A stretch of DNA of 64,000 bases. Origin: a virus. The notes beneath the pieces are model-generated. The model was not told where the DNA came from. It did no database searches and saw nothing but the letters and a program-made list of their open reading frames with translations. Positions 8,728-48,247 of this stretch are shown here, one piece after another; the first letter of the stretch is position 1; every line of letters starts with the position of its first letter. The stretch spans positions 12,138 through 76,137 of IMG/VR virus record IMGVR_UViG_3300020171_000019. One strand, 5' to 3'. A program made the position numbers and the translations under genes.

Positions 8728-8908
8728 AATGTGCAAGCACACAAGAAGACTGAGGGGTTATGCGGAAGGAGCAATAGCAACGGCGATGGCCGGCTTGATA
8801 GTTGTGGTCGTTCTTGTTATTGGATTCTTTGTGTTTCTTGGTCTCGTGATTCGGGCGACGTATGACATGGCGGTGCTCACGATAGCCTGCCGGAAAGGAA
8901 GGGCGTAA
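8720..8908 (+). CDS. small membrane protein
   Basis: Long hydrophobic stretch LIVVVVLVIGFFVFLGLVI. Confidence 0.5.
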   Translation: MSEMCKHTRRLRGYAEGAIATAMAGLIVVVVLVIGFFVFLGLVIRATYDMAVLTIACRKGRA

Positions 8909-8910
8909 GC

Positions 8911-9117
8911 ATGACCGCAAGAGCAAGCAAGGCGAAGGTGGAGCCTGTTACGGTGCCAGTGCTGCAGCCGGAAGTAATACTGACTCAGCACGAACCCACG
9001 GCGGTTGCAATCCACGAGATAACGGCAAGGCTGGAATCCGTTGAGCGGATACAGAAGGAAATTCTTGAACATCTGAGGCGGTCGTTTCCGTCCACATTCA
9101 GGAGGATCGGAGCGTGA
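8911..9117 (+). CDS. hypothetical coiled-coil protein
   Basis: Tightly packed ORF with RBS. Confidence 0.5.
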   Translation: MTARASKAKVEPVTVPVLQPEVILTQHEPTAVAIHEITARLESVERIQKEILEHLRRSFPSTFRRIGA

Positions 9118-9464
9118 AGGCTGATATATGGATTCTGGTCGGGCTTATGTGTGCAGCTTTGTGCGGCACTGTGATTGGAGTTGAGAGCGCAACAGATGCA
9201 CCCAAGAAGACGCCTGTAACATTCCGCGGTGTGCCCTTGACGCCAGACAGCACGATGGCAGAGGTGTATCACGATCCAGCAAAAGCCGCCTATGTCAGAA
9301 TGATCCTGAAGGACAACGGCAACGGAAGCCTTACGAGTGAATCGGGTCACCTGTTGTTCATTGCATCCCCGGCCTGGGCAGACAGCACGAAGCGGCAGGC
9401 GATACTCATGATGTTCAGGGCGCAGGAAGTGCTACAGCAAGCGACGGAGGCGTTGAGAAAATGA
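9114..9464 (+). CDS. hypothetical protein with signal peptide
   Basis: MKADIWILVGLMCAALCGTVIGVESA; GTGA overlap; AGGAGG RBS. Confidence 0.6.
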   Translation: MKADIWILVGLMCAALCGTVIGVESATDAPKKTPVTFRGVPLTPDSTMAEVYHDPAKAAYVRMILKDNGNGSLTSESGHLLFIASPAWADSTKRQAILMMFRAQEVLQQATEALRK

Positions 9465-9685
9465 TACAAACACTCTTGATAGGGATGGCGATGCAGGCTG
9501 TTATTACTGGTGTGTTGTCAGAAATGCAGGTTATTCGACTGTCCGCAGGCCAACAGTTCTGCGTCGCGGGAGTGCTTGTTGTGTTTTGGGTCGGCATTGA
9601 AGTGGAGGCATACTGGAGGAGAACATCATGCTCCCGATATAGGCGTAAATGCCTAAAGCAAGAGGCAAAAAGGGAAGGCAGATAA
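9461..9685 (+). CDS. small membrane protein
   Basis: Two hydrophobic segments; overlaps both neighbours. Confidence 0.45.
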   Translation: MIQTLLIGMAMQAVITGVLSEMQVIRLSAGQQFCVAGVLVVFWVGIEVEAYWRRTSCSRYRRKCLKQEAKREGR

Positions 9686-11760
9686 TGATCCCCCTTCGCG
9701 CATTCGGCAGAGACCTTCAGAAAGTCCACCTCCGGCGGGAGGCCGGGCTTGTTCGGGACACAAAGTCGATACTGGACAGAATGCGCAGGGACATGACTGC
9801 CACGGCTGATGAGTGGCTTGACGCAATGGTAATCAACGGGCAGCTCAACTACAAGCTCTGGGACAGATGGCAGCGGTCGTTCGTGAATGCACTCCACAGG
9901 AACATCAAGGACGCCTATGACGATCTGGCAGGGTTGACAATCACAGCGCAAAAGACCGCGTTTGATACTGCATCCAGTGCCATAGTTGCCGAGTTCAAGA
10001 CGCTGTATCCGATGATCAAGGTCGAGAAGACAGACAAAGAGCCTAAGCCACTGACGTTCATCGACAAGTCTTTGGAGGCACTACATGCCGAGTGCTGCGC
10101 AGAACTTATGGAGTCTGGTATTGGCCAGGAACAGGCCGAAGCACAATCGTGGGCCTCCGTAACTGCGTGGAGTTCGATCGAGGAGGCAAGGATTCCGGTA
10201 CTTCAAGTTGGCAAGGGGAGAGTGACGCCGGAGTATCTTCAGTTCTTGCGGGATCAAACACGGTCGGACATCGCTCCTGGGAATCTCATCAAGACCATAT
10301 CGGCGGATCAATTGAAGGTGGTTCAGGGCACTCTTGTGTCGGCGATGGAAAAAGGCAAGGACATGCGATGGACGAAAGACAAGATAATGAGTGAGCTTGG
10401 CAAGGGGATGATCGACGAAAAAGCCAAGGAGAAACTTGACTACAACGTAATGCGGATTGTTAGGACGTCTCACAACAGGGCGGCCAATGCAAGTATTGCC
10501 TATTTCTCTGCGCAGAATCCAGTGGTTGCCGAGATGGAGAGAGTCGCGGATGGGAGACCTTGCGCGGCATGTATAACCGGGGACACAAAAATCATAACAA
10601 AAGATGGCCGAAAGCCGATAACCGATGTACAGATTGGGGATGAGGTATTGACACACAAGGGCAGGTTTATGCCAGTCCTACAAACTATGTCGCGAGGGTA
10701 TTGTGGCGTGATGGTGCTCATTCATGCAAGAGGAAGGAGCTTGCGTATGACTCCGGAGCACGAAATTCTTACAGAGTACGGTTTTGTGCCGGCTATGACG
10801 CTTAAGCATAGCGACGGCATTGTCGTGTGGGATGATAAGGCGAAGGAGATGTTTTATTGTCGACCAGACTGGTTCACATTGTACGAAGATGAACCTTGGG
10901 AAGAGATGGTCTATAATCTCGAAGTGGCCGAGGATAACTCGTACGTAGCAAACGGGATATGTGTCCACAATTGTCTTATCCTCGATGGTACTCGATACGC
11001 TAAGGGGCAGGTGCTTGTAGACCACCCTAACGGGATGTGCCTATTGACGCCTGTCGTGAAGAGCCTCGAAGAGATGGGTTACGACTACAACAGCCTTCCG
11101 GAGACAGCCAAGAAAGCATGGGTGAGGCAAGAGCGGCCACATCCACCAATGAAGATCGAGTTCTATGAATTGCCGGAGAAGGATCAACGCATTGTGCTCG
11201 GCAATTCGACATTTGAGTTGTGGAAGAAGGAGAAGTTCCCTCTTGAGGCATTGGTGGTGCGGAGTAAGGGGTGGTTGACTCCTATCACGTTCAAGGATCT
11301 ACAGGCGAAGATTAGCACCCTCGGCGGACTGTCTGCACCCAAGGCAAGTCTGACGTTGGCCGATGGAACTATGAGAATACTTACCGCCGCAGATCGGGCG
11401 ATTACGCTTCCCCTCGATCCTGTGGACAGAGCGAACCCAGATGCGGTTATATGGCAAGGACAACCTCCTCGGGTGTCAGGCCAGTATCAACAGGATTTGT
11501 TTGGGATGGGCGTTGACGGGATGATACCGGAAAGCGTGAGGGCACAGGCTGAGGACTGGTTGTTCTCGGTTGGCAAGTTACCAGATGATGCAACTTGGAG
11601 GGCGCAGGCCATAGCAGGGGCGAAGTGGCAGGAGTTCAATGAATACGCTCGGACCCTGGGGCTCTACGCACGGAAGGGCACAGATGGACGATTCTACTAT
11701 GTCGTGCCAAAGGGCAAGGAGTTCAATGCGGCGATGCGGCTGACCAAGAAGGCATCATAA
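9685..11760 (+). CDS. minor head protein (MuF/SPP1 gp7-like) with intein and C-terminal extension
   Basis: RIVRT...DGRPCAA[intein]C...HPNGMC MuF motifs; follows the portal; TAATG-coupled start. Confidence 0.85.
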   Translation: MIPLRAFGRDLQKVHLRREAGLVRDTKSILDRMRRDMTATADEWLDAMVINGQLNYKLWDRWQRSFVNALHRNIKDAYDDLAGLTITAQKTAFDTASSAIVAEFKTLYPMIKVEKTDKEPKPLTFIDKSLEALHAECCAELMESGIGQEQAEAQSWASVTAWSSIEEARIPVLQVGKGRVTPEYLQFLRDQTRSDIAPGNLIKTISADQLKVVQGTLVSAMEKGKDMRWTKDKIMSELGKGMIDEKAKEKLDYNVMRIVRTSHNRAANASIAYFSAQNPVVAEMERVADGRPCAACITGDTKIITKDGRKPITDVQIGDEVLTHKGRFMPVLQTMSRGYCGVMVLIHARGRSLRMTPEHEILTEYGFVPAMTLKHSDGIVVWDDKAKEMFYCRPDWFTLYEDEPWEEMVYNLEVAEDNSYVANGICVHNCLILDGTRYAKGQVLVDHPNGMCLLTPVVKSLEEMGYDYNSLPETAKKAWVRQERPHPPMKIEFYELPEKDQRIVLGNSTFELWKKEKFPLEALVVRSKGWLTPITFKDLQAKISTLGGLSAPKASLTLADGTMRILTAADRAITLPLDPVDRANPDAVIWQGQPPRVSGQYQQDLFGMGVDGMIPESVRAQAEDWLFSVGKLPDDATWRAQAIAGAKWQEFNEYARTLGLYARKGTDGRFYYVVPKGKEFNAAMRLTKKAS
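10570..10971 (+). mobile_element. mini-intein (134 aa, Hint only, no homing endonuclease)
   Basis: CITGDT start, TPEH block B, VYNLEV...YVANGICVHN end, +1 Cys. Confidence 0.92.
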
Positions 11761-14897: not shown

Positions 14898-16076
14898 ATG
14901 GAACTGATTGAATCGATCAGACAGCACGTAAGGTCACACGAGCTTGAGTGTGGCAGCAATAAGAAACTGGCCTGGAAGCATGCTGGGGCCGAGTTGCAGG
15001 AATGGTTCCTGAGTGGCAAGGTAGACGCCACCAAGTTCTCGTTGAAGGCAATCGCGGAGGCAACGATACCGGGATTCAGTGGAATGAAGAACTCCAGCGC
15101 CGAGGAACTCTCTGAGGCAATGGTAACGTCGGCATTCCCGAACATCACCGGTTCGCTGATTCACAGCCGGATCATCGCGGCCTATGACTACGAACTTGGG
15201 AGCCTCAAGGAACTGATCACAGAGGACACTGCAATCGACTATCCTGACTCCAGGATTGCCGGTTTCGGCGCAGGCGACGACCTCGACTTCATCGCCGAGG
15301 GAAAGCAGTACGAGGACACCATCCTGACCGAGAAGAACGTCCAGGTAAGAATTGGGAAGTTCGGCAAGATGATCGAGCTTACCAGGGAAATGGTGCTCTT
15401 CGACAAGACGAACCAAGCGGTAAGTCGTGCTCGTGCGATCGGCGAAAAGGCTGGGTCGCATCAAGCCAAGATGATAGTGCAGACAATAGAGATGCTTCCG
15501 CGGACTTGCTTCGGGGAAACCACATCGAACCTGCGCAACTTCGTCTACAACGGATCTGTAACCACAGTCGGTAACTTCTACAACACCGATCACTCTGCCG
15601 TTCTGGACGCACAAGTCAACAGCAACAAGATCACGACCGCCCTGACGACTGCCGGAATGAACGAGGCATATGCGTTGCTGGCGGCGATGGTTGACGAGCG
15701 CGGAACCAAGATTAGCATCAAGCCGATGCACATCCTCGTGCATCCGTCGAATGAGGCGATCCTGGATCAGTTGCTGCACTCTCAGAAACAGTATGACACT
15801 GCCCATGACGCCCTGAACCCTTACGGGCCGGGTGGGCTTCGTAGTGGACTGCGGCCTATAAGCTCAGTGTTCATCGCTGATGCCGACGACTGGTATTTGG
15901 GGCGGTTCGCAAATCAGGTCGAGTGGTGTTGGGGCTGGAAGCCTGAGACGTTGGCGCAGGGTGCCACATCCGACGCGGCATTCGAGCGTGACGTGGTCAA
16001 CCGGTTCCGGTTCGGCTACATGGGTGGATGTGCCCACACGGACTACCGTTACATCATCAACGCCAACGTGGCATAA
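14898..16076 (+). CDS. major capsid protein (Mu gpT-like, HK97 fold)
   Basis: KFGKMIELTREMVLFD, KPMHILVHP, DDWYL, DYRYI; 392 aa. Confidence 0.88.
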   Translation: MELIESIRQHVRSHELECGSNKKLAWKHAGAELQEWFLSGKVDATKFSLKAIAEATIPGFSGMKNSSAEELSEAMVTSAFPNITGSLIHSRIIAAYDYELGSLKELITEDTAIDYPDSRIAGFGAGDDLDFIAEGKQYEDTILTEKNVQVRIGKFGKMIELTREMVLFDKTNQAVSRARAIGEKAGSHQAKMIVQTIEMLPRTCFGETTSNLRNFVYNGSVTTVGNFYNTDHSAVLDAQVNSNKITTALTTAGMNEAYALLAAMVDERGTKISIKPMHILVHPSNEAILDQLLHSQKQYDTAHDALNPYGPGGLRSGLRPISSVFIADADDWYLGRFANQVEWCWGWKPETLAQGATSDAAFERDVVNRFRFGYMGGCAHTDYRYIINANVA

Positions 16077-16086: not shown

Positions 16087-16722
16087 ATGAGGACGAGCAT
16101 CAAATGGCTCACGATCGGTATCCTTCTGGCGTCGGCGGTGACGGTCTGGGCGGCAGCAACGCACATCGGGCGGATCGTCTTTACGGAGGTTCCGGAAGTT
16201 ACCGGTAGTAACGCAGAGACGATTAGCAATACCACCAATGGCTCTTGGACGCTGGACAAGTTGATTATCACGAGTTCACCGGAGATTACAGGAGCCAATG
16301 GGGAGTATTGGACTAACACCACAAACAACATCTGGAGTTCAGATGGGGCCGTCAATACTACGGCACAGTTCACCGTTGATAGTTCGCCCATTGTCAGAAC
16401 CCTGACCATCCCGATAGACAGTCTTGGCATGACGGACGTGGACATTCCGGGGGTTATCACGCTGGAGAGTGACATCACCATATTACGAGCACAGGTGACC
16501 TCGATTGATGTGACAGCCGGAAATGCCTGCTACGTTGTGTTCCATTCTGGGGCGATACGGGATTCTGTCTCAGTTGCTCAGGGTGCACAGACAGGCGCGA
16601 ACACTACAGACTATAGCCTATCGGCAGCGGCTGTGTGCAGTCTCCTTGTAAGCGACGGATCGGCAGGCACTGGCGGGACTGGTGCCATGGTGGTGATTCA
16701 GTATACCGACAAGAACGACTAA
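16087..16722 (+). CDS. beta-rich protein with Sec signal peptide (decoration-like)
   Basis: MRTSIKWLTIGILLASAVTVWA; AAGGAGG RBS immediately after the MCP stop. Confidence 0.7.
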   Translation: MRTSIKWLTIGILLASAVTVWAAATHIGRIVFTEVPEVTGSNAETISNTTNGSWTLDKLIITSSPEITGANGEYWTNTTNNIWSSDGAVNTTAQFTVDSSPIVRTLTIPIDSLGMTDVDIPGVITLESDITILRAQVTSIDVTAGNACYVVFHSGAIRDSVSVAQGAQTGANTTDYSLSAAAVCSLLVSDGSAGTGGTGAMVVIQYTDKND

Positions 16723-16778: not shown

Positions 16779-18320
16779 GTGGCGGTTGTCTACGGAGATG
16801 TATCGGCATCGCGGACGCTGGAAGTAACGCCTTCTGATGTCCGAGTCAAAACATTTGATGCGCCGGCAGCGAGTGCTCGGGTGTCGGGCGATGTCACTGT
16901 AACGTATACGCTCGAATCTGACCTGACGGTTACGGCTTCCATTGGCGTGCAGTGGAGCACAAACGGCTCTTCATGGGCAACTGCCACGATGGGCACCGGC
17001 GGCGATGGCACGAGCGGACTTGCAACATCCGGGGCTGGCACGTCACATACATACATCTGGGATAGCGTAACTGACGTTGGGTCTGCTCTGGAGGATGAGG
17101 TATACCTGCGCATCCGGGCCAGCGATGGAGCTGCTTGGAGCGGCTATACGACGTCTTCTGCTTTTACGGTTGACAATCTCCCTACTGCATCCTCGTTGAC
17201 GACTCCTGCCGATAGCTGGTTTGCCAAGGACACAACTCCGATCTTTGCATTTACCATTCCGACCGATCCAGGCGGGGATTACCTGCATTTCAAGTGTGAT
17301 GTCAGGAATACCGCAGGAGCGATTACTCTGAGTAGGGAGTCAAACACAACTCCGACTGGTTGGGAGTATTGGGACGACAACAGTTCTGATTACACAGGCA
17401 AGCGATACCGAGCCTACTATGTGCAGAATTTGACGGTCTCTTCATTGACTGGCACGACCCACACATTCGCTTCGTTGACCGATAGCGTGAGAGGGACGAC
17501 ATTGCCGGCGTCGATCACGGGCGGGCGAGTAATGCTGATGAACAAGGCCGACCGTCTGTGTTACGTGACGAGTGTCACGAGTTCAGGGTTTACGATTGCG
17601 ATGAGCGCAGCGGGTGGAGCGGATTCGGGTCTTGTGGATGTGCTTGTCTTCTACGATGACGGCGGCGGATGGGATGAGTATTGGATCTCAGGTTATGTAG
17701 TGTCGTCGGATACAGGGTTTGCGGTGAACTACTCCAACCTGACAGATGATCATTCTGTAACCGCACTTCCCGCAACAATAACCAACGCAAAAATAGTCAC
17801 CATGAGCGAAACAGATCGACAGGTTGTCATTACGTCGATTACAAATACGGGATTCACGATTCGGCGGGCGGCGGGAGGGGCAGATACGGCACAGGTAACC
17901 TTGATGATCCTGAAGACTCCGGCAGATGCTTACTGGATCACGGACTACACGGCGTCTTCGTATAGCGGGACGAGTGTTGCGTGGAGTGCTCTGACTGATG
18001 CACTTGGCGGGGCTCTGCCGACGCACATTCCTTGGCCGTTTGTGTTGGCGTGCTCGAAGAACGGGACAATGGCCTATGTGTCAGCCGCGGACGCCTACAA
18101 CATGACCATCGCAAAAAGCGTAGCAGGAGAAGACACGGATGCAACGGTTGACTTGATGATCTTCGCGCCTAACGTCACTACAGGGTTCTGGGTGCCAATG
18201 ACGACTACTGGCGTGCCGGATGCGTATGAGGGGGTTGCGGCGCGGTTTACGGTTCAGGCGGCAGATGCGTTGGCAGAAGCGACCTATACATGGACAATCA
18301 CGGCGGGAAATCTGGCATAA
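16779..18320 (+). CDS. Ig/FN3-like structural protein with three tandem H-lectin-like repeats
   Basis: VYLRIRASDG...WS FN3-like motif; three ~80 aa repeats Y[YW]..LTD..LP..GFTI..AGG.D..V. Confidence 0.7.
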   Translation: MAVVYGDVSASRTLEVTPSDVRVKTFDAPAASARVSGDVTVTYTLESDLTVTASIGVQWSTNGSSWATATMGTGGDGTSGLATSGAGTSHTYIWDSVTDVGSALEDEVYLRIRASDGAAWSGYTTSSAFTVDNLPTASSLTTPADSWFAKDTTPIFAFTIPTDPGGDYLHFKCDVRNTAGAITLSRESNTTPTGWEYWDDNSSDYTGKRYRAYYVQNLTVSSLTGTTHTFASLTDSVRGTTLPASITGGRVMLMNKADRLCYVTSVTSSGFTIAMSAAGGADSGLVDVLVFYDDGGGWDEYWISGYVVSSDTGFAVNYSNLTDDHSVTALPATITNAKIVTMSETDRQVVITSITNTGFTIRRAAGGADTAQVTLMILKTPADAYWITDYTASSYSGTSVAWSALTDALGGALPTHIPWPFVLACSKNGTMAYVSAADAYNMTIAKSVAGEDTDATVDLMIFAPNVTTGFWVPMTTTGVPDAYEGVAARFTVQAADALAEATYTWTITAGNLA

Positions 18321-18334
18321 GGAAGGGGCGATCA

Positions 18335-18835
18335 ATGAAAACGATCTTGAGTATTTTTGTAGTGGTCGGGCTTCTGTCTGGGGGTATAGCACAAGCGGAG
18401 TTGATCGAGGGATATGCGGCCAATCAGGTTGTTTTGTGGGATTCAACGGACATATTCACAGACTCTACAGACGTCACGCTATCCACTATCGTAATGATGG
18501 AGCAAAGCACACGACTGTCGGTCTACTATCAGGCGGTTTCGGCAAGCGGGACACCGAATATCAAGCTCGATATGCTCCAGTCCTACGAGAATACTGCATC
18601 GAAGTTTGCGACACCGGACACAACTACGACTCTGCGGTATAGTGGTGGTTGGTATGAGATTGCGAATATCCCGGCCATTGCAGACAGCTTGAAGGACGAA
18701 GTTGTCCACATCAAAGAGATTGCGCCGATTCCGATGAGATACTTGAGATTGAGGGTCACTGGGCGGGCTACAAATGCGCCTGATACACGAGTGAGAGTTG
18801 TTCTATTCGCACAACCACCCGTCCGCGTTCAATAG
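18335..18835 (+). CDS. beta-sandwich protein with Sec signal peptide
   Basis: MKTILSIFVVVGLLSGGIAQA; PMRYLRLRVTG. Confidence 0.7.
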   Translation: MKTILSIFVVVGLLSGGIAQAELIEGYAANQVVLWDSTDIFTDSTDVTLSTIVMMEQSTRLSVYYQAVSASGTPNIKLDMLQSYENTASKFATPDTTTTLRYSGGWYEIANIPAIADSLKDEVVHIKEIAPIPMRYLRLRVTGRATNAPDTRVRVVLFAQPPVRVQ

Positions 18836-18847
18836 AGGAGATAGGCA

Positions 18848-21301
18848 ATGAAAAGACTGAGTTTGATTCTGGTTGGGCTGATTGCCCTTGTGCTTCCTGC
18901 GGTAGGGAGTGCATCAAAGTGGACAGTTGCGGACACGTTGCGCGTGGACAAGATCATTGCCAAAGATTCAAGCGCGGTACAGATGGGCGCAATGAGCACT
19001 GCGTTGAGCGGTAAGATCTTGGCTGATTCGGTTCTGGGGCGGACGGATACGAACACAGGCATTGTGTTGGCCGGTAGCGATACGATCAAGATGCAGACAT
19101 CCGGAACGGTGCGCCTGAAGGTGAATCCTGACGGGACCGTGACGTTCATTAGCAACATCGGGGCTGAGAATGAGCCTACTCCATCATTCCCTATTTCATT
19201 CTTGAGCGGCACAGGGGACAAGATCGCACTGTGGGGCCAGTCCGGCAACACTTATGGTTTTGGTATTCAGAGTAACCTGCTACAGATTCACACGGACGTA
19301 ACTGGTGCGGACATTGCATTCGGGTACGGCTCCTCGGCGGCACTGACCGAGACGGCTCGGTTGACAGGCGCAGGACAGCTACAGATACCCACTATTGACG
19401 TTGCTGGAGGGATTCTACTCGGCGGAGATGTCAACCTCTATCGCGCTTCCGCTAATCGCCTGAAGACGGATGATGCTCTCACCGTAAACGATACTCTTAG
19501 CGTTACGGGTAAGAGTATCCTGACTGGGATTGTAAGCGTTGGAAACGGAACCGCTGCTCTTCCAGCGATAGCCGGTATCAGCGATCCGAATACCGGAATG
19601 AGGTTTCCAACAGGCGATACGCTTGCGTTCTCGACAGGCGGGAGCGAGCAGGTGCGGATTGATCCTAGTGGCAACGTCGGCTTCGGAACCACAACTTTCG
19701 GCACGAATGCGGCGAAAGTGATCGGTCTTAGCGCAGGGGTTTCTCCTACCACGAGTCTTGCGGATATGTCCCAGATATGGGCAGTAGACTACAACGGAGC
19801 GGGGTCTAATCGTCCGTATGTCAGAACCGAGGAAGGCAACTCCTCGCCAATCGCTGCACTCTCCGAAACGGCAATCTACTACGGCATCACGTGGAACGAG
19901 TCTGCGGATTCCTACACGAGAACCGGCAGAACTGCAGGACACAAGGTCGCTGCTACGCTTCCTGCTGGTATGCTGCCGATTCAAGAGTCTATGCGTGGCT
20001 GTCTTCTCTCCGACGCTGGAGCGGTGAACTACTACCTATCGCCTACAAACTGGGCATATAAGGAAGACGGTGCAACCGCCTCAGTTCTCACCGGCGCAGG
20101 TGGCCAGGTGATGGTGGAGATACCGAAGTTCTGGTACCGCTACGGTTACGCAAGCACAACTCATACGTGGGAAGTATCCCCCGTTCCGATGTCGGGTTTC
20201 GCGCCTCATCCCGCGTTCTACAAAGACGGTGCTTGGGTGGACAACAGATACATCGGAGCATATGAGGGAACGCTCTACAATGTAGGGAGCGCTTTCTACG
20301 AAAACAAGTTCGCACCGGTTGCTTCGCATTCTGCAACCTTCGATGTTGATCCCGGAACGATTACTGCCGGCTCAGGAACGCCTTATTCGTGGTTGGCGGC
20401 TGGCGATACGATCGTTGTTACGGGAGCTGGAGGCAGTAACGGGACATACGCTATTAGCACGGTGACGGGAACCGTTATTACGTGTACTGGAGTCATAGCC
20501 GGTGTTGATTCTGTGCAGGCAACAACGGTGATTTCGTCTCTTGCGGCGGATTGGACTGCAACCACAGGCGATAAGCTGAGCTCAGTGTCAGGATTGTTCG
20601 CAGTCTCGAATGGCACGCGAGCGCAGTTCCGCGAGATCGCCCTGAATAGGGGAGCTGGCTGGAGGCAGATAGATTACGATCTGGTTGCGGCGATTCAGCT
20701 CTTGTGTCTGACTGAGTATGCATCGTTCTATACACAGTCCGTGATTGGCGCAGGCATCTCGAATGTCGCCGACTGGAGTGCTTACAATGCTTACTATCCC
20801 ATTGCCAAAACCGGCACAGGTAATGCGATCGGGAATGCGAGCGGTAACACGGCAGGTTCAACAACTGCTGCGGCAGAGGTGAGTGATTACGTCAAGTATA
20901 GAGGAATTGAACAGTGGTACGGACACCTGTGGAAATTTGTAGATGGGATCAACATCAACAACAACATCCCATATCGGTGCAACACGGAGACTAACTTTGC
21001 CGATGACACGGCAAGTAACTACACCGCGATGACGAATGCCCTCGGCGCTGCAGTGACACTGCACAACGCCAATGGGTATGTGGCTACGCTGCAAAAGATG
21101 AAATGGGGATTTCTGCCTGCGAGCGTAGGCGCAGACGGAGCAACGAAGATCACCGATTACTACTATCAGAATAGCGGCTGGCGCGTCGCCTTGTTCGGTG
21201 GCGCTTCTGAGGATGGCGCGAATGACGGTGGCTTCTATTGGTATCTGAATAATGCCTCATCCGATGCCAATCCGTATATTTGCGCCCGCGTTGGATTTTA
21301 G
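18848..21301 (+). CDS. DGR target: fibre/adhesin-like protein with signal peptide and C-terminal C-type-lectin-fold (FGE-like) domain
   Basis: Signal MKRLSLILVGLIALVLPAVGSA; fibre motifs DVNLYR, LAFSTGGSEQVRIDPSGNVG; QVMVEIPKF, YIGAYEG, YRGIEQWYGHLWKFVDG; VR at C-terminus. Confidence 0.9.
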   Translation: MKRLSLILVGLIALVLPAVGSASKWTVADTLRVDKIIAKDSSAVQMGAMSTALSGKILADSVLGRTDTNTGIVLAGSDTIKMQTSGTVRLKVNPDGTVTFISNIGAENEPTPSFPISFLSGTGDKIALWGQSGNTYGFGIQSNLLQIHTDVTGADIAFGYGSSAALTETARLTGAGQLQIPTIDVAGGILLGGDVNLYRASANRLKTDDALTVNDTLSVTGKSILTGIVSVGNGTAALPAIAGISDPNTGMRFPTGDTLAFSTGGSEQVRIDPSGNVGFGTTTFGTNAAKVIGLSAGVSPTTSLADMSQIWAVDYNGAGSNRPYVRTEEGNSSPIAALSETAIYYGITWNESADSYTRTGRTAGHKVAATLPAGMLPIQESMRGCLLSDAGAVNYYLSPTNWAYKEDGATASVLTGAGGQVMVEIPKFWYRYGYASTTHTWEVSPVPMSGFAPHPAFYKDGAWVDNRYIGAYEGTLYNVGSAFYENKFAPVASHSATFDVDPGTITAGSGTPYSWLAAGDTIVVTGAGGSNGTYAISTVTGTVITCTGVIAGVDSVQATTVISSLAADWTATTGDKLSSVSGLFAVSNGTRAQFREIALNRGAGWRQIDYDLVAAIQLLCLTEYASFYTQSVIGAGISNVADWSAYNAYYPIAKTGTGNAIGNASGNTAGSTTAAAEVSDYVKYRGIEQWYGHLWKFVDGININNNIPYRCNTETNFADDTASNYTAMTNALGAAVTLHNANGYVATLQKMKWGFLPASVGADGATKITDYYYQNSGWRVALFGGASEDGANDGGFYWYLNNASSDANPYICARVGF
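21178..21294 (+). repeat. DGR variable repeat (VR)
   Basis: 117 bp ungapped match to TR; 16 of 17 mismatches fall at TR adenines. Confidence 0.97.
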
Positions 21302-21352
21302 GTATTATATGAAAGGAGGTTATGAAATAAACAGGATGTACACTCTGGTGCA

Positions 21353-21469
21353 CTGGCACGTCGCCTTATTCAGTGGCAATTCTAATAATGGCACGAATGA
21401 CAGTGACTTCTATTGGAATCTGAATAATGCCTCATCCAATGCCAATCCGAATATTTGCACCCACGTAGG
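21353..21469 (+). ncRNA. DGR template repeat (TR)
   Basis: A-rich copy of VR with 10 in-frame AAT codons; lies between target and RT. Confidence 0.95.
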
Positions 21470-21597
21470 TTGAGCCAACTTGAAAACGATTTTGTGAGTG
21501 TACAATCCTTGCCTCTTGGCAGAAGAAACAGCATCTCCACTAAGGGTTGGTAGGGTGCAGAAATGCATATCGAACGCCCTGGAGATGGCTTAAACCA

Positions 21598-22632
21598 ATG
21601 AAGCGACATGGCAATCTGTACAAGGCAATCTGCACGACAGAGAACATCGCAGAAGCCCACAGGAACGCACGGAAGGGAAAGACGCACTACGGTGAAGTGC
21701 AAAAGGTGGACAAAAATCCCGAGATGTATTTTCCCAAGATCCAGAGAATGTTGATGCACAAAACGTTTCGCAACTCCAGATACTCAGTATTCAAGTTGAG
21801 AGATGCAGGCAAAGAAAGAATTATCCACAAACTCCCGTACTTCCCAGACAGGATCGTTCATCACGCCATAATGCAAGTAGTGGAACCAATCTGGAAGCGC
21901 ACGCTTATCAATGATACATTCTCGTCAATCAGGGGCAGGGGAATCCATAAGGGAATGAAGCGGATAACAGGGGCGATGCAAGACAAAGAGGGCACGAGAT
22001 ATTGCCTGAAGCTTGACATAAGCAAATACTACCCATCCATCGACCATGATGTCTTGAAACAGATCATTCGCAGAAAAATAAAGGACCCTGATCTTCTCTG
22101 GTTACTTGATGAAATTATAGACTCGGCTCCAGGTGTCCCGATAGGAAATTACCTGAGTCAGTATTTTGCCAACTTGTATCTGAACGGCTTTGATCACTGG
22201 GCGAAGGAAACAATGAGAATCAAGTGGTATTTCAGGTATTGTGACGACATTGTAATCTTCGGTGCCACGAAAGAAGGATTACACGTGCTCCTATCTAAAA
22301 TCCGGGACTACTTGTGTCAGGTTCTACGGTTGAGCGTCAAAGGCAACTACCAGGTGTTTCCCGTTGAGGTGCGCGGCGTAGACTTTCTTGGGTATGTATT
22401 CCGGCACAGCCATACCCTCGTGCGACGACGGATTAGGGACAACTGCATCAAGGCATTGAAAGGAAATATCCGGGACATCCACAAGCAACTACCGAGTTAC
22501 TTCGGGTGGTTCGGTCACTGCAACAGTCACAATCTTCGGCGATCCCTTGTTGGGGATGACCTACGGGAACGAATGAACAGATATTGCCAGATGAGCGCAT
22601 TGAGTAATCCACTTAGAGGAGGTTTGATATGA
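21598..22632 (+). CDS. DGR reverse transcriptase
   Basis: MKRHGNLY, DRIVHHA, LKLDISKYYPSI, GVPIGNYLSQ (DGR-type SQ), YFRYCDD, DFLGY. Confidence 0.96.
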   Translation: MKRHGNLYKAICTTENIAEAHRNARKGKTHYGEVQKVDKNPEMYFPKIQRMLMHKTFRNSRYSVFKLRDAGKERIIHKLPYFPDRIVHHAIMQVVEPIWKRTLINDTFSSIRGRGIHKGMKRITGAMQDKEGTRYCLKLDISKYYPSIDHDVLKQIIRRKIKDPDLLWLLDEIIDSAPGVPIGNYLSQYFANLYLNGFDHWAKETMRIKWYFRYCDDIVIFGATKEGLHVLLSKIRDYLCQVLRLSVKGNYQVFPVEVRGVDFLGYVFRHSHTLVRRRIRDNCIKALKGNIRDIHKQLPSYFGWFGHCNSHNLRRSLVGDDLRERMNRYCQMSALSNPLRGGLI

Positions 22633-23012
22633 AATCAAGCTCCGATCGTTTTCCAGATGTGGTGGTGCTGTCAAACGAGCGTACCCAAATTCGCTACAAC
22701 GTCTCACCTGTTACCAAGCAGGACATGGACGGCATGATCAGGACGGTCTATGAGTTCGATTATGTAGAAATTTCCGGTGATGTAACCAAGGAGAAGATCG
22801 TGGAGGCAATCCTTCTTGTAGAGAATCCAGAGCCTGCAATGGAGATCGTGCAGGTCGTTGAGGAGAAAGCTATTGTCAATGTTGATGCGGTGCGAGTCAT
22901 GGCAGTAGAGGCAGTAGCAGAAGCGGCAGAACGGTTGAGAACTGCGCCGGACAAGGAAGACGTTGTGATTGAGACAAACCCAATGGAGGTCATATGGACT
23001 GGCAGCAAGTAA
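22629..23012 (+). CDS. hypothetical protein translationally coupled to RT
   Basis: ATGA overlap with RT stop; QIRYNV...YEFDYVEI. Confidence 0.7.
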   Translation: MKSSSDRFPDVVVLSNERTQIRYNVSPVTKQDMDGMIRTVYEFDYVEISGDVTKEKIVEAILLVENPEPAMEIVQVVEEKAIVNVDAVRVMAVEAVAEAAERLRTAPDKEDVVIETNPMEVIWTGSK

Positions 23013-23275
23013 TACCGATCATTGTATGGATCGCAACCCAGATCTTGAAGGTGGCTGTGCCGGCGCTTGAACGGACAGGACTTGGCAAGAGCGTTCTTCC
23101 AATTATAGCGGTTGCGGTGGGAGTAGTAGCGGGCGCAGTGGTTGACCAGCAGATCCTTGACGTGGCATTCCCGTCATTGATGCAAGGATTGACCAATGCT
23201 GGCTACGGGTTGATGGCTACGGGCATTCACGAAGTCGGGACTTCGGTTGGCAAGATGTTTGGGAAGCGAGTATGA
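22994..23275 (+). CDS. holin-like membrane protein
   Basis: TQILK...VLPIIAVAVGVVAG...GLMATGIHE; 2-3 hydrophobic helices. Confidence 0.65.
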   Translation: MDWQQVIPIIVWIATQILKVAVPALERTGLGKSVLPIIAVAVGVVAGAVVDQQILDVAFPSLMQGLTNAGYGLMATGIHEVGTSVGKMFGKRV

Positions 23276-23288
23276 GGGAGGTGCGCTG

Positions 23289-23618
23289 ATGCCAGAAGAA
23301 GTTGAAGAATACCAGGAGCAACAGAACGAGGAGAGGTATGTGACCTGGAAGGGGTTTATAGTCGCAATAGTGCCCTTGCTTGTGATTCTCATGGGGGCAC
23401 AGATGTGGATAGTGAGAGTCCATGCGGAGCTTCCTTACCACGTTGGAGTAATAGCAATTGCATACGAGAAATCCAAGGGTGAAGTTCTGGAAGCTCGGCT
23501 GTCCAGGATGGAGGTTGATGTTAAGGAGATAAAAACCCAGATCGAACAGAACAATCAGGAGATCCAAGATCTGATTAAGGATCTGGGTAGAGAACTGCGA
23601 CAAGGACGCAGACTATGA
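23289..23618 (+). CDS. single-TM coiled-coil protein
   Basis: FIVAIVPLLVILMG followed by heptads. Confidence 0.6.
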   Translation: MPEEVEEYQEQQNEERYVTWKGFIVAIVPLLVILMGAQMWIVRVHAELPYHVGVIAIAYEKSKGEVLEARLSRMEVDVKEIKTQIEQNNQEIQDLIKDLGRELRQGRRL

Positions 23619-23923
23619 CCGTAGAGAGTATAGGCGCAGGCATAGCAGGTGTTGGTGTCTTGGGTGGAGTGTTGCGGATTCTGTCGGTTGCATGGCGATG
23701 GCGACGGGCCTTGGGTGCAATAGCCATGCTGATTGAAGAATATAAGGCCGCAAAAGCCCCTGACAGTGATGGCGGCTCAAAGATTACGGGTTTTGAATCA
23801 GAATACTTGATCCAGAGAATCACCGAGATTGTGACTGAGGGAATAAGGGCTAAGACTCCACCTCCCCAGGATGTAGTTGAGAACAGTCCTATCCCTCTTG
23901 AGTCCGACAAGGAGACCCAGTAA
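23615..23923 (+). CDS. membrane-anchored hypothetical protein
   Basis: N-terminal hydrophobic helix; coupled start and stop. Confidence 0.55.
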   Translation: MTVESIGAGIAGVGVLGGVLRILSVAWRWRRALGAIAMLIEEYKAAKAPDSDGGSKITGFESEYLIQRITEIVTEGIRAKTPPPQDVVENSPIPLESDKETQ

Positions 23924-24684
23924 TGTCCTTGGCTCTGATGTGCACGGAAAGAGATGTCATAGACCGGATACCACAGTTGTATGAGTCCGGGGCGTCGAAT
24001 GAATATCCCGTGCGCGGTCTTGCGCAGATTCGGCGCACGATCTATCAGACAGACGGTCAACTCAGGTCGATGCTTCGGGTGTTGTATGGTGACAGCCTGA
24101 CTATCACATCCTGGGCGGATGTGCCAGAGCCAAAGGATGTCAATACGGGGGGTGGTGGACTGACCCAGGCAACCGCAAGTGCAGCGGCTATCACGGAATT
24201 GTGGACGGTGACATATACATCGACAAGCGCATTTAGTGTGGCAGGGGCGCTGTCTGGGGCACAAGGAACCGGCACAAAGAGCACGGCATTTACCTCGACA
24301 AATGGTTATCTGTCTATTGCTGCGGCGGATTGGTCAGGAACGCCAGCGAACGCAGATATTTTCTTCATTCGAGTTTTTGCAGTAGAGTCAACGCTTGTCG
24401 ATATTTCGGCATGTCTGGCGTCGATCAGCATTCTGAGGTCTGTATATGGTTCAGAGATACCGAACAGTTCAGACCTGGCCGAGCAATATGAGGCATATCT
24501 TTGGGGAGCAGAGAAGAAGCCCGGCATTCTCAGGCTCCTTCTTGATCCTACGACCAGTGGCACGATACTACAGAAGGGCTTATCAGTCCGGAACCTCGAT
24601 CCTATCCAGGTGGACTGGGAGATCAGCGAGGAAGGGGAAGATGTGACGGACTACGCAACCAAGGAATGGGACGCCGTTGAGTAG
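23923..24684 (+). CDS. head-tail adaptor-like protein with beta-rich insertion
   Basis: CTERDV...TDGQLRSML...LVDISACLA; position before the morphogenesis gene. Confidence 0.6.
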   Translation: MSLALMCTERDVIDRIPQLYESGASNEYPVRGLAQIRRTIYQTDGQLRSMLRVLYGDSLTITSWADVPEPKDVNTGGGGLTQATASAAAITELWTVTYTSTSAFSVAGALSGAQGTGTKSTAFTSTNGYLSIAAADWSGTPANADIFFIRVFAVESTLVDISACLASISILRSVYGSEIPNSSDLAEQYEAYLWGAEKKPGILRLLLDPTTSGTILQKGLSVRNLDPIQVDWEISEEGEDVTDYATKEWDAVE

Positions 24685-31100: not shown

Positions 31101-31553
31101 ATCAAGGCCAAGCTGGAATTGCGTATGAAAGAATATGTATTGGAGGCAACAGCAGCAGCAATTTCTCTTAATTTCGTGCAGGCAGCCAAGTATGCAGCAT
31201 TGGCGGCACTTACGGGATTGGCCGCTGGTGTTGCGGGTGGATATGCAGAACGGCAACGCAGCTTGATAGACAAGCAACTGAGTGTCCCAACAGGACAGAC
31301 ACAAGGAGGAGGGAGTGGTGGTGGTGAAGGTATTTATGGAGGATCACGCGCCGAAACTACGTCCTTTGCCGCTGTGTCCGTCCAGAAGGAACCGAACATC
31401 ACGATTGCGCCATCCGTGACAATAGAAGCCGGTCACGATGTTTTCATAGGCGAGGGCAGCGTTGAGGAATTCAAGGTTTCACTGGAGCGCGTGATGGTGC
31501 AGTCCATCAAGGACGCGATGAGCACCGGACAAATCAAGGTAGGGAGAGGATGA
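28194..31553 (+). CDS. tail tape measure protein
   Basis: 1119 aa helical Ala-rich protein with hydrophobic mid-segment, after the chaperones. Confidence 0.9.
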   Translation: MPPGLSRRLSLIVDMSSKAALTGLKQLQSAINAVSATAGRVGTGAATGFSALQKGASAATGAMQRLGEGIRSSWMIASIAISAVSAAIGLFINKTAAAYQQMQSATIGLRTIAKSYGYSGDEAEAAARQLEKSTNGFLDMGSAAQALKNLLGAGLDLPRATEQIKAMTEQAIFNRQTHYGLAEAVIVATEGIKNEMSIAADATGTTKNLALMWRDYAKARGLNVMELTKLQKAEAAYIGFMEEGTRSAGDFSKALGTAQGFEVMLGFAVRKTSQAIGEFSAQLKWGVANALTPYITQVRTWIEAHKEAIRAKVAEWVRSITAAIAQAIETGIKYGSMLIDWIMKNRDFILEVGKAAAIIGALAVAMSYLKSPILVSIAALLVLMAQSEVLRGVLMELAKFVNDHKGVLLTMLGMFVATQIVTSITMVTGMVGKLQFALLALATSPAVPMFVTSLVQGFAAIMVAAGPWLLLVGALTAAGVALYRMWDESNKRMKEAAKTTANMKTPIENDMTALMDMSRELQKLPKEQSIKIKTMGMTETQTTVRDYMKVLEEIPRDKRIKLNITGKSEIEASVDEHIRQLERLPKEQLIKITTYGEKEATTTAGAHLQTVLGAAAATQKAMRKPEGQRTPEEREQIGLFSAKKYGFSLTDLPVARKTPTSATKATDEQMQAMKKLRNLQAEINMEAMSGYAKEVEAIRQKREASIAEQGELQKKAGVAVTLIANTTLAEKEAATARQKLDQETLSKVRETMGEIMALGMTNTQVELANIDAVKQARIKALVETRNMLRAMAEAPGAGPEAKQRLAEFERKIPQSLAGVETVAATSKVDVVKKGKEEDKQKLVDAQKAMMDEMTTAAIAAYNRGDIADALSTGKKIENMQRVANSKQELITAMMAGESALTEYLLNEWGRQSEAHQTMLDVTKNSFMAVALVMERVGQAMFDKDVRRQLTAVNVAKMAGRAVLAEFADMIKAKLELRMKEYVLEATAAAISLNFVQAAKYAALAALTGLAAGVAGGYAERQRSLIDKQLSVPTGQTQGGGSGGGEGIYGGSRAETTSFAAVSVQKEPNITIAPSVTIEAGHDVFIGEGSVEEFKVSLERVMVQSIKDAMSTGQIKVGRG

Positions 31554-32152
31554 TGACCTGGGATGAGGCGCAACCCTTGATCAATAGCATCGACGGCTTT
31601 CTGGGGGCACAAGAAGGGGAGTGGCTTTTTCGGCAGGTTCAGGCAATACCTGATAGTGCAGTTGTCGTGGAGATAGGAAGTCTGCGAGGGCGGTCAACGG
31701 CCTGCTTGGCTCTTGGGTGCAAAGGGACGCAAAAGAGAGTGATTGCCATTGATCCGTTTGTTGACTGCCGGTATGACCTGGCAGGGGCGCAGTCCTACTT
31801 CGATGTCTGGCGTGGCAACATGGAGCGCATTGGGGTGATTGACCGGATTGAGTCTTTGGTTATGGATAGTCGGCAAGCAGGCGCATTGTGGGGGCAGCGG
31901 CAAACACCAATACACTTACTTTTTGTCGATGGTTCGCATTTGAGGGATGACGTTATTGCTGATTTCGAGGACTTCTTTCCTTGGGTTGTGGAGGGTGGGG
32001 TAGTTGCATTTCACGACATACTTAACAATTTTGTGGGGCCACAGGAAGCATGGGAAAGGTGCTCCGGACTGTTGATCAACGTCGGGATGTGTGATTCTAT
32101 GATGTTCGGACAAAAACCGGCCACGAACTACGAGGGCAAGAATGGTCACTGA
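31550..32152 (+). CDS. class I SAM methyltransferase (Methyltransf_24-like)
   Basis: VVEIGSLRGRS, AIDPF, LLFVDGSH, GGVVAFHD. Confidence 0.88.
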   Translation: MMTWDEAQPLINSIDGFLGAQEGEWLFRQVQAIPDSAVVVEIGSLRGRSTACLALGCKGTQKRVIAIDPFVDCRYDLAGAQSYFDVWRGNMERIGVIDRIESLVMDSRQAGALWGQRQTPIHLLFVDGSHLRDDVIADFEDFFPWVVEGGVVAFHDILNNFVGPQEAWERCSGLLINVGMCDSMMFGQKPATNYEGKNGH

Positions 32153-32693
32153 CAGGTCTCTGCATCGACACACCGTGGCGGATGGTTTTCTGAGACGTCA
32201 TTTGCCACATGGTTCAGGAGTAGTGATTGATGTTGGAGCGAGCGAAAACCACGAATACGAAGACAACTACCGGGCGACCTTTAAGTCATTCGGCTATGAA
32301 TACAAGCCGGGATACCTTGTTGAAGGCTGGGATCTGGCGCAGAGACAAGGCTGCAAATATACTGGCATTTTCTGTTCTCACGTGCTTGAACACATTCCGA
32401 ACGATGAAATAGCGGCCAAATATCTTTGGTCGATGGCAGGGAGCTTCCTGGTGGTGGTTCTGCCGATAGCCGATGAGCACATTGAATACGGGGAAGCTCG
32501 ACAAGAGGAATGGGGTCATGTGCGGCGATACTCAATAGAGAGAGTGTTGTCATTGTTTCCTGACTTGCCAGATGCCTGTGAGGTTGAGGATGTGATTTCT
32601 TTCCTTCCATCAGGGGAGTCATGTCCGTTTGACAACTGGCAAATAGAGTGCCTGTGGGTCAAGGAGGAGGATAGATGTCATTCTCGGGACTGA
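32142..32693 (+). CDS. class I SAM methyltransferase-like protein
   Basis: VIDVGA, FCSHVLEHI, GHVRRY. Confidence 0.75.
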   Translation: MVTDRSLHRHTVADGFLRRHLPHGSGVVIDVGASENHEYEDNYRATFKSFGYEYKPGYLVEGWDLAQRQGCKYTGIFCSHVLEHIPNDEIAAKYLWSMAGSFLVVVLPIADEHIEYGEARQEEWGHVRRYSIERVLSLFPDLPDACEVEDVISFLPSGESCPFDNWQIECLWVKEEDRCHSRD

Positions 32694-33505
32694 GCCCCAA
32701 CGGAGTGCCCTATACCTGTGATAGCTGGCCGGAAGACAAAACCGGCGACTTCAACTGTGCTATCCTTGACATTGACATCACGCACAGATGCAACCTGCGA
32801 TGCGACGGGTGTATGCACTACTGCAATTATGGTATCGGCGGCGATCATCCATTCGGTGAAGGAGGCCAGTGGATGCGGAATTGGGCCGGGAAAGTGAAAC
32901 CGGCGCGATTCACGATTGTCGGCGGGGAGCCATTATTGCATCCAGGGTTACATGACTACATGTTGCTTGGCGCAGAACTGTTCCCGGATTCAAGGCGTCG
33001 GGTATATACGAATGGATGGTTTCTACATGCCACACTCGGAAAGTGGCTACAGGAGACCGGATTCGATCTCTACATAAGCATGTATCCTGTGTCCAGTGAC
33101 AAGGTTTTGCGGCGAGATGAGGGTATCCGGAGGTTTCTGTCCGAGGTGCCACAGGACGTATCAGTGCAAGCCGTGCAGATGAAAGATCACTGGAGAAGAC
33201 CGCATCTTGGCTTCGGGTCAACACTACGACCGCACAACAGCGATCCTGTAGGGGCGTGGTCTTGGTGTACCGCACGACACGCAGTCCAGTTACACGACAA
33301 TCGACTCTGGAAATGCTGCGTGTCTGCATATCTGCCGATGGCCTTGGGAAAACTCGGACTTATGGAATGTCCGGAATGGCAACCCTTCCTGGATCAACAC
33401 AGCCTTGGGACAGAAGCAACATACGACGACGTGGCAGTATTCGCATTGCGCGGCGCAGAGGCCATTTGCGAGATGTGCCCGGACGATGGATGGGGTGAGG
33501 TATGA
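32675..33505 (+). CDS. radical SAM protein
   Basis: CNLRCDGC, GGEPLLHP, YTNG, C-terminal KCC...CEMC. Confidence 0.9.
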   Translation: MSFSGLSPNGVPYTCDSWPEDKTGDFNCAILDIDITHRCNLRCDGCMHYCNYGIGGDHPFGEGGQWMRNWAGKVKPARFTIVGGEPLLHPGLHDYMLLGAELFPDSRRRVYTNGWFLHATLGKWLQETGFDLYISMYPVSSDKVLRRDEGIRRFLSEVPQDVSVQAVQMKDHWRRPHLGFGSTLRPHNSDPVGAWSWCTARHAVQLHDNRLWKCCVSAYLPMALGKLGLMECPEWQPFLDQHSLGTEATYDDVAVFALRGAEAICEMCPDDGWGEV

Positions 33506-35114: not shown

Positions 35115-35123
35115 GAGGGCAAG

Positions 35124-36140: not shown

Positions 36141-36149
36141 GAGAATGGC

Positions 36150-39529: not shown

Positions 39530-40057
39530 ATGCGAGGTGCGGCATTGGCGGTATTGGTTTGGCTGTCCTTGCTCTGTTGGTTATCTGGCTGTGGAGGCCA
39601 CAAGACGACCATTGGTCTGACGGTTAGACCGGATGATCATTCCGGATCGGTGACTGTGACCGTGGAACCTGCAGGCACAACGAACAAGCCGCAGGACAGT
39701 GATGCCGATCTATTGGATAGCAACCTCGGTGAGATATACTTCGACTTTGACAGTGCCTTTCTCGGGCCAGAGTCAAAACCTGTTCTTCTGCACCATGCGA
39801 GGTTGCTTGTGAAAAACTCCGAGATGCAGTTGCGGCTTGACGGGCACTGCGACGAGCGAGGAACAGAGGAATACAATCTGGCCCTCGGGGAACGGCGAGC
39901 ACGAGCGACGAAGGACTATCTGCTCAGGTACGGTATATCGTCAATGCGGGTGTCGATTCGCAGTTATGGAGAAGAACAGCCTGTCGACCGACGGCACACA
40001 GAAGAGTCATGGGCGGCGAACAGGCGGGTTGAGTTTCACCAAGAGTGGGGGAACTGA
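39530..40057 (+). CDS. pal: Pal-like OmpA-family peptidoglycan-binding lipoprotein
   Basis: Lipobox LSGC; IYFDFD, GHCDERGTEEYNLALGERRA, SYGEEQP, NRRVEF. Confidence 0.9.
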   Translation: MRGAALAVLVWLSLLCWLSGCGGHKTTIGLTVRPDDHSGSVTVTVEPAGTTNKPQDSDADLLDSNLGEIYFDFDSAFLGPESKPVLLHHARLLVKNSEMQLRLDGHCDERGTEEYNLALGERRARATKDYLLRYGISSMRVSIRSYGEEQPVDRRHTEESWAANRRVEFHQEWGN

Positions 40058-48223: not shown

Positions 48224-48247
48224 CCTGAACCGAGAGAGGAGCACCGT

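Follow-up and report, generated by a model that had tools for sequence, protein, structure and literature searches.

In phage BPP-1, the reference for much of what follows, the protein Avd is essential to the diversity-generating retroelement (DGR). Cryo-electron microscopy of that system revealed a "cPRT Stop," in which an upstream:spacer (Sp) duplex (about 13 bp) leads to a short stem-loop and then to adenosines, and the same arrangement was predicted for 207 Avd-containing DGRs (bioRxiv 10.1101/2023.10.23.563531); in vitro, 20 nt upstream of the template repeat (TR) are required (PMC6182149). The orphan RNA motifs RT-1 to RT-19 adjoin reverse transcriptase (RT) genes, and only RT-10 has been assigned to a DGR, that of BPP-1, the others being speculated to belong to DGRs (Weinberg et al., PMC5737381). 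With respect to the diversified proteins themselves, those of phages were described as lacking any signal peptide or transmembrane region that could be detected (Benler et al. 2018, PMC6199706), and leaders are typical of cellular DGR targets and tail proteins of viral ones (Roux et al. 2021, PMC8144416). Here we analyze 64,000 nucleotides (the window) of the virus record IMGVR_UViG_3300020171_000019, positions 12,138 to 76,137, in which a DGR diversifies a fiber-type protein that begins with what looks like a Sec-type leader and is encoded between the capsid and neck genes.

The element is almost certainly a genuine DGR. All genes of the window lie on one strand, and the parts of the element, in window coordinates, are as follows.

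18848..21301, plus strand: DGR target gene, 817 aa, with a leader, a fiber shaft at about residues 23 to 340, and beta domains plus a C-type-lectin domain at 340 to 817.
21178..21294, plus strand: variable repeat (VR), codons 778 to 816 of the target.
21182-21184, 21197-21199, 21227-21229, and 21287-21289, with their TR equivalents: codons at the invariant residues 779, 784, 794, and 814.
21282..21290, plus strand: GC-only tract GCGCCCGCG at the VR 3' end, with TR counterpart GCACCCACG; a possible element like the initiation of mutagenic homing (IMH) site.
21333..21345, plus strand: 5' arm of the TR-bracketing helix (a cPRT-Stop-like duplex), pairing with 21496-21509.
21353..21469, plus strand: TR, non-coding, with 33 adenines and 10 AAT codons in the VR frame.
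21496..21509, plus strand: 3' arm of the TR-bracketing helix, pairing with 21333-21345.
21505..21595, plus strand: RT-17 RNA (RF03020), consisting of the hairpin UGCCUCUUGGCA, an A-rich stretch, and a second hairpin.
21598..22632, plus strand: DGR reverse transcriptase, 344 aa, matching RVT_1, phrog_1423, and PDB 8ub7; start revised from 21547.

Within 17500-24000, VR and TR make up the sole long direct repeat, with an offset of 175, and no second VR was found in the entire 76-kb record. Base-by-base comparison of the two gives 17 differences in 117 nt, 16 of which fall on TR adenines (12 A>G, 3 A>T, and 1 A>C, read from TR to VR); the remaining mismatch is a T>G at 21386/21211. Given the 33 adenines among the 117 nt of TR, the chance that at least 16 of 17 mismatches fall on A is 2e-8. 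VR supplies the final 39 codons of open reading frame (ORF) 18848-21301 and hence the 3' end of the target gene, and TR lies in the intergenic gap 21302-21597, separated from the end of the target by 51 nt. Changes at the adenines of TR codons cannot reach a stop codon, and with 21 variable codons about 1e18 different proteins are possible.

The reverse TRANSCRIPTASE is encoded by ORF 21547-22632, which carries IGNYLSQ and YCDD, fitting the DGR RT motifs [LIV]GxxxSQ and YxDD in a definition said to stem from Wu and colleagues in 2018. The ORF matches Pfam RVT_1 at 2e-15 and phrog_1423 ("Reverse transcriptase") at 1.5e-121, and it aligns over its full length (E 9e-37) with the 328-residue PDB 8ub7 "Reverse transcriptase" and eight sister entries, which, judging by their length and number, are presumably the bRT of BPP-1. 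Group II intron RTs reach at best only 1.5e-16, and the ORF scores far below the cut-offs of all NCBI group II, retron, and DRT models. Since alignments with homologous RTs begin only near residue 18 of the ORF and the RT-17 RNA fills 21505-21595, translation very probably starts at ATG 21598, two bases past the RNA element, rather than at TTG 21547.

The space between the two genes is highly structured. Rfam RT-17 (RF03020) matches 21505-21595 over its full model (1-95), scoring 44.7 bits where 40.4 is the gathering threshold (E 1.5e-7), and the match ends 2 nt before the RT start codon; RT-17 or RT-18 occupies the equivalent position in 6 related loci. The predicted fold of 21330-21600 is more stable than that of shuffled sequences (z -2.8). 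Within it, 21333-21345, just upstream of TR, pairs with 21496-21509 in a helix of 13 bp with one bulged A, which closes TR into a loop, and directly after this helix come the hairpin UGCCUCUUGGCA and then the A-rich run. Related cassettes that carry the hairpin motif number 33, and 21 of these have an uninterrupted helix of 9-15 bp at equivalent places, the sequences being all different. The succession of helix, stem-loop, and A run matches the "cPRT Stop" and fits the in vitro need for 20 nt upstream of TR. Scans for promoters and terminators stayed at chance level. The orphan motif RT-17 is now placed within a DGR, between TR and RT, and the "cPRT Stop" architecture, known from Avd-containing DGRs, extends to a viral clade that lacks Avd.

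From these parts a cycle can be proposed, in which we infer cDNA synthesis, priming, and homing from BPP-1. A non-coding RNA holding TR (21353-21469) would be transcribed; the 13-bp helix 21333-21345/21496-21509 would close TR into a loop, with the RT-17 hairpins (21505-21595) next to it; RT (21598-22632) would copy TR into complementary DNA (cDNA), misincorporating opposite adenines; and the cDNA would replace VR, the last 39 codons of gene 18848-21301. The outcome would be 21 variable codons, and never a stop, on the C-type-lectin tip of an 817-aa fiber-type protein.

The fold of that tip is well defined. AlphaFold, run with 118 homologues, gave a predicted local distance difference test score (pLDDT) of >93 for residues 340-817 and of <50 for residues 1-340, which appear disordered. 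Among solved structures, Foldseek ranks TaqVP first (E 2e-9, probability 1.0), followed by Mtd (~0.03), and among the predicted viral structures of BFVD the top matches, from 2e-38 down, come from crAss-like and other uncultured phages and are "tail collar fiber" proteins. By sequence, phrog_5302 ("tail protein") is matched at 1.2e-88 by residues 327-815, and tail-fiber PHROGs by residues 214-335; for residues 1-340, a combined protein-language and structure look-up returned phage fiber clusters only, which serves as a lead rather than a test. No match was found when the family profile was compared by sequence with solved structures. The family comprises >277 proteins with 45-85% identity over the C-terminal 480 residues and widely differing N-termini, and it occurs in metagenome-assembled genomes (MAGs) of many bacterial phyla and of Methanoperedens, ANME-2, and Woesearchaeota. 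The target is very likely a ligand-binding fiber adhesin. Tentaclins (PMC10743442) were considered as its family and rejected, as their lectin domain is N-terminal.

A previous sequence-only reading of the window had reported a 117-bp alignment with 16 mismatches at TR adenines and one other, 10 AAT codons in TR, an intact RT with GNYLSQ and YCDD, and a C-type-lectin-fold VR. A base-by-base recount returns all of these mismatch figures and the same number of AAT codons, the RT is borne out by its motifs and by RVT_1 and phrog_1423, and the fold is confirmed by the matches to TaqVP (E 2e-9) and Mtd (~0.03). The description of the DGR as complete stands with respect to the intact RT, TR, and VR; it does not extend to Avd, which is missing from the 76-kb record, or to a hairpin after VR.

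A small gene that immediately follows RT appears to belong with the fiber.

22629..23012, plus strand: 127-aa protein (p22629), its start overlapping the RT stop; conserved partner of the fiber family.

In 7 loci without RT the N-terminal 62-81 aa of p22629 come immediately behind target homologues, and in 2 loci they come behind RT; because the protein follows target homologues in those seven RT-less loci, it is assigned to the fiber and not to the DGR. It has no match in Pfam, PHROG, or NCBIfam, and it is an unannotated partner, perhaps a chaperone or adaptor. As a wider observation, a protein resembling its first 60-80 residues always follows the lectin-fiber gene, with or without a DGR in between, in the related loci L004-L011, L015, L063, L064, and L068.

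What distinguishes this target from other phage DGR proteins is its N-terminus, along with those of two genes that precede it.

18848..18913, plus strand: Sec-type signal-peptide-like segment, residues 1-22 of the target, with predicted cleavage after VGSA.
18335..18835, plus strand: 166-aa neighbor p18335, leader MKTILSIFVVVGLLSGGIAQA↓E; possible co-exported partner.
16087..16722, plus strand: 211-aa neighbor p16087, leader MRTSIKWLTIGILLASAVTVWA↓A; beta-rich.

The target begins MKRLSLILVGLIALVLPAVGSA↓SK, in which a charged start leads into a hydrophobic core of 15 residues and positions -3 and -1 hold small residues. Measured against the usual properties of Sec leaders (a positively charged n-region, an h-region of 10-20 residues, and a c-region with small residues at -3/-1), the segments MKR, LSLILVGLIALVLPA, and VGSA↓S correspond to the n-, h-, and c-regions of a signal peptidase I substrate. 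A strong Shine-Dalgarno sequence, AGGAG, lies 9 nt before the target ATG, and no in-frame start with a ribosome site was found behind the leader. P0002, a relative with 84% identity, agrees with the target at 64% over residues 1-22, where it also has an indel; the eleven residues that follow (SASKWTVADTL) are unchanged, and identity over the remainder of the shaft is 83%. The leader thus evolves in the manner of a signal peptide. The family of p18335 has 4 members only, variable in the hydrophobic N-terminus but conserved in the mature part, and one of these members is encoded on the same 90.7-kb contig as P0002. The model of p18335 is all-beta, of low confidence (pLDDT 57), and gives generic beta-sandwich matches with Z up to 8.4. 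No family match was obtained for p16087 in the library searches, and p16779 gave weak immunoglobulin (Ig)-like and beta-sandwich leads only; these two proteins alone show an enrichment of N-x-S/T sequons, about 2-fold over expectation.

Leaders of this kind recur in the family. A leader-type N-terminus is present in 13 of 137 lectin-family members (~10%), and among 87 distinct members a leader-bearing upstream neighbor accompanies 6 of 9 leader-bearing targets, versus 1 of 78 others (Fisher p 1e-6, in a test that ignores relatedness and host taxon). In locus L019, portal, protease, capsid, and three small ORFs are followed by a leader-bearing fiber-like protein and then a leader-bearing lectin protein. 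In L052, a P22-like podovirus, four consecutive signal-peptide-like proteins (8549-11479), the last of them the lectin protein, lie between the head-tail adaptor and a gp10-like tail hub, and here the leader runs straight into the conserved domain, a shaft or attachment part being absent. In L056, a leader-bearing small protein and a leader-bearing target come after the tape measure and precede RT. The leader-bearing proteins P0013 and P0048 themselves were not found in IMG/VR. A family member of another type was seen in L140, a Bacillales MAG (about 4903-5900), where a type IV pilin-like N-terminus (MKKGFTLIELLAVIIIL) is combined with adjoining TR and RT; this may be a pilin-like protein diversified by a DGR.

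Set against the surveys of Benler et al. and Roux et al., the leader of the target is therefore unusual and probably functional. It is likely, as far as sequence can tell, that the N-terminal segment is a working Sec export signal, so that the fiber and its leader-bearing neighbors would fold outside the cytoplasm. Should the target be exported, it would either be added to virions only once the cell has lysed or work at the cell envelope.

The genomic setting is that of late structural genes. Large terminase, portal, a morphogenesis protein, and capsid (14898-16076) are followed by three unknown ORFs, the target, TR, RT, and four small ORFs; then come neck (from 24677) and tail-completion proteins, terminator, tube, and tape measure, a cluster of methyltransferase, radical-SAM, and glycosyltransferase genes, and the large tail-tip genes from 37234. 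Placed in this context, it can be hypothesized that some unrelated tailed phages (the siphovirus described here and those of L019, L052, L056, and L074) encode small modules of Sec-exported fiber and lectin proteins within their structural operons, which fold outside the cytoplasm and attach to virions only after lysis or act on the envelope, and that in the present case the lectin tip is hypermutated by a DGR. We put this forward tentatively, as a possibility that falls short of being probable. If true, it would depart from the picture of phage DGR targets as leaderless tail fibers assembled in the cytoplasm, and possible roles on the envelope include masking receptors, protecting progeny from debris, and adhesion.

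Several points besides the limits of the neighbor test weigh against export. The leader was called by eye and with a hydropathy script. About 90% of the lectin family has ordinary fiber N-termini, the N-terminal shaft of the target resembles virion fibers, and its gene lies within a late structural operon. Virions of tailed phages, moreover, assemble in the cytoplasm.

One alternative is that the target is an ordinary virion fiber of the tail, tail collar, or neck, whose hydrophobic N-terminus would go unused for export (uncleaved, buried, or inefficient) and whose DGR would switch receptor specificity as in BPP-1. The match to phrog_5302 "tail protein" at 1e-88, the tail-fiber PHROGs, and the "tail collar fiber" structural neighbors all agree with such a fiber, as do the homologue in Methanosarcina virus MetMV, which stands after a 3002-aa protein and closes the structural gene cluster, the partner p22629 that is common to leaderless fibers, the position of the gene just upstream of the neck genes, and the published observation that viral DGR targets are mostly tail proteins (PMC8144416). 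Against it stand a leader whose n-, h-, and c-regions are canonical, with positions -3 and -1 taken by small residues, and which is less conserved than the mature N-terminus and co-occurs with leader-bearing neighbors, and the L052 protein, in which the leader sits directly on the conserved domain, without shaft or attachment part. We regard an unexported tail or neck fiber as somewhat unlikely.

Improbable, in our assessment, is a head fiber or capsid decoration with a lectin tip that binds environmental or cell-surface glycans, which was the preference of the sequence-only reading. The target gene does follow the capsid gene at a distance of 2.8 kb, in the company of beta-rich and Ig-like ORFs, and L019 shows the same order of portal, protease, capsid, small ORFs, leader-bearing fiber, and leader-bearing lectin protein; but family searches gave no similarity to known decoration or head-fiber proteins, a cleaved leader is ill-suited to capsid assembly in the cytoplasm, and leader-bearing homologues are also found after the tape measure (L056) and between adaptor and tail hub (L052). 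As the leader-bearing homologues in L056, L052, and L019 differ in gene position, position does not fix virion location. Thus, of the earlier claims on location, the signal peptide is borne out at the level of sequence, with its three regions and its conservation in the closest relative, and the placement of the target beside the capsid genes and far from the tail tip agrees with the gene order (16 kb from the tail tip). The preference for a head fiber over a tail fiber is not supported as put, given phrog_5302 at 1e-88, the tail-fiber PHROGs, the "tail collar fiber" neighbors, and the variable gene position in relatives. The alternative of an exported ligand binder, in turn, has gained support from the leaders in the family, from L052, and from the leader-bearing neighbors.

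As to activity, it is somewhat probable that this DGR, from a viral clade without Avd, is working or was working very recently, and that it resides in an uncultivated siphovirus from groundwater with a Gram-negative bacterium as host. Recent activity is indicated indirectly, by the intact parts, by the same A-type differences in relatives, and by the divergent VR of P0002. In a protein comparison, the VR of P0002 is 75% identical to that of the target, versus 88.5% in the adjacent domain, and it differs at 10 of 40 residues, at codons with A in TR. The layout of target with VR, TR, structured RNA, and RT is found in 43 distinct cassettes in all, including 13 IMG/VR relatives; each related cassette has 9-27 A-specific mismatches. 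The absence of Avd is common to all 13 of these closest relatives. The DGR is accordingly another member of a populous, catalogued clade, with dozens of cassettes in public viral and genome collections.

Four observations count against this reading. No Avd (PF05635) was found in the 76-kb record at E up to 1. No hairpin was found downstream of VR (-1.9 kcal/mol, z +1.8). VR variation could be judged only from assembled contigs (Logan). Lastly, four of the A>G differences restore the family-invariant residues R779, G784, G794, and R814. The small ORFs gave no accessory-protein match, HRDC having had no separate search. At the contig level, contigs from an independent sample (run X2) cover the flanks, with none found over VR, and a contig from run X3 diverges on entering VR; both are hints and were not counted as evidence. 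As a separate observation, a short contig about 82% identical to TR (window 21352-21454) occurs with different flanks in groundwater runs X1 and X2, and TR-like contigs with other flanks therefore point to a second, related DGR in the same groundwater communities.

The four restored residues deserve attention in their own right. TR encodes H779, S784, S794, and H814; in the family alignment the residues at these positions are R, G, G, and R, all invariant or almost so, and the outcomes at these sites are A>G only. When tabulated across relatives, the Arg814 codon is CAC or CAG in TR and CGC or CGG in VR in at least 21 related cassettes. Because these A>G changes restore invariant residues, they are either selection-fixed or part of an IMH-like boundary, and not free variation. 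Part of the predominance of A>G (12:4) thus stems from selection or from a difference of an IMH-like kind, and not from the enzyme. It also follows that an unmutated copy of TR would probably give a defective protein. The GC-only 9-mer that closes VR, whose A/G differences from TR are fixed in the clade, could be an IMH.

That the element is instead an inactive relic, with old VR/TR differences and homing that has ceased, is very improbable, for while Avd was not found in the 76-kb record, several A>G differences are fixed, and VR polymorphism was not demonstrable in assembled contigs, the RT, TR, RNA elements, and target are all intact, the entire clade lacks Avd yet carries 9-27 A-specific differences per cassette, and the close relative P0002 has a different VR.

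The likely host can be narrowed down from other genes of the virus. The sample is groundwater, and the record is 81% complete; no tyrosine integrase was found in this 81%-complete record, and no tRNAs were found. The capsid protein has no relative in the GTDB genome collection and one weak phage match only. Within the tail-tip operon, a Pal lipoprotein (39530-40057) carries the lipobox LSGC and an OmpA domain (1e-18), and it scores 125.4 bits with TIGR02802, just above the cut-off of 125.35. A 130-aa RlpA-family lytic transglycosylase (60290-60682; TIGR00413, 129 bits) has a signal-peptide-like N-terminus and may be the exported cell-wall enzyme of the phage. Because the phage encodes Pal and RlpA, the host is taken to be a diderm (Gram-negative) bacterium with peptidoglycan and a Sec/Lol envelope. 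The best annotated phage match is MetMV, with 49% identity, and the closest genome matches include Methanoperedens. An archaeal host, to which these matches would point, was rejected, since the phage has a lipobox Pal and RlpA and the lectin module spans many bacterial and archaeal phyla.

Other regions of the window are of separate interest. Between the DGR and the neck genes, three small ORFs stand in a row at 22994-23923 (93, 123, and 102 aa); each has at least one predicted membrane helix, none has a family match, and together they resemble a holin-type set. Genes of the glycosyltransferase, methyltransferase, and radical-SAM-like kinds are numerous between the tape measure and the tail tip, with more beyond (31550-37280, 43749-45884, and 47316-50329); these modification genes could act on virion or exported proteins or on host glycans. 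A 703-aa head-morphogenesis-like protein (9649-11760) gives sub-threshold Hint_2 and intein-splicing matches at residues 308-441 and may hold an intein or a Hint-type self-cleaving domain. In a non-structural region, 54742-57439 encodes a MoxR-type AAA ATPase (bpMoxR, 1e-55) followed by a VWA-domain protein.

On its own, the DGR contributes little that is new, as its mechanism can be read from BPP-1. The export signals of the target and its neighbors, by contrast, contradict the published generalization for phage DGR targets, and they recur in several unrelated phages. If these signals work, some phage fiber adhesins would be made outside the cytoplasm, and both gene annotation and host-range prediction would change.

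When the locus is placed beside known systems, BPP-1 (mtd-avd-TR-brt) is alike in its adenine-specific TR-to-VR differences, in an RT that is homologous over its full length (if 8ub7 is bRT), in a VR at the 3' end of a C-type-lectin-fold protein of the receptor-binding type, and in an upstream:spacer duplex followed by a stem-loop and adenosines. It is unlike in that the present locus has no avd, has TR directly after the target at a gap of 58 nt, and has no hairpin after VR; in its spacer RNA, which is RT-17 here and RT-10 in BPP-1 (PMC5737381); and in that the target gene here lies between capsid and neck genes and encodes a leader. TaqVP of Thermus aquaticus (PDB 5VF4) is the best solved-structure match to the C-terminal domain, although identity is 12-14%, with no match at the sequence level, and TaqVP is cellular and has no fiber shaft. 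The phrog_5302 "tail collar fibre" DGR targets, such as that of crAssphage LMMB (PMC7290462), share the same C-terminal module of about 480 residues, and in LMMB this module is likewise a DGR target. Those targets, however, have ordinary fiber N-termini and belong to tail modules, whereas the protein described here has a Sec-type leader and follows the capsid gene. Exported cellular targets, such as LdtA of Legionella, TvpA of Treponema, and the "cellular targets" of Roux et al. 2021 (PMC8144416), combine a leader with a C-terminal lectin-fold VR, as here, and are presumably displayed outside the cytoplasm; unlike the present target, they are products of chromosomal, non-phage genes. XepA of PBSX (PDB 6i56), when compared with the low-confidence model of p18335, gave a generic beta-sandwich match only (Z 7.4). 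Although neither fiber-like nor DGR-diversified, and likened here by role and not by homology, T5 Llp (PMC9586334) and XepA illustrate that phage late and tail gene clusters can encode non-virion proteins that act on the envelope.

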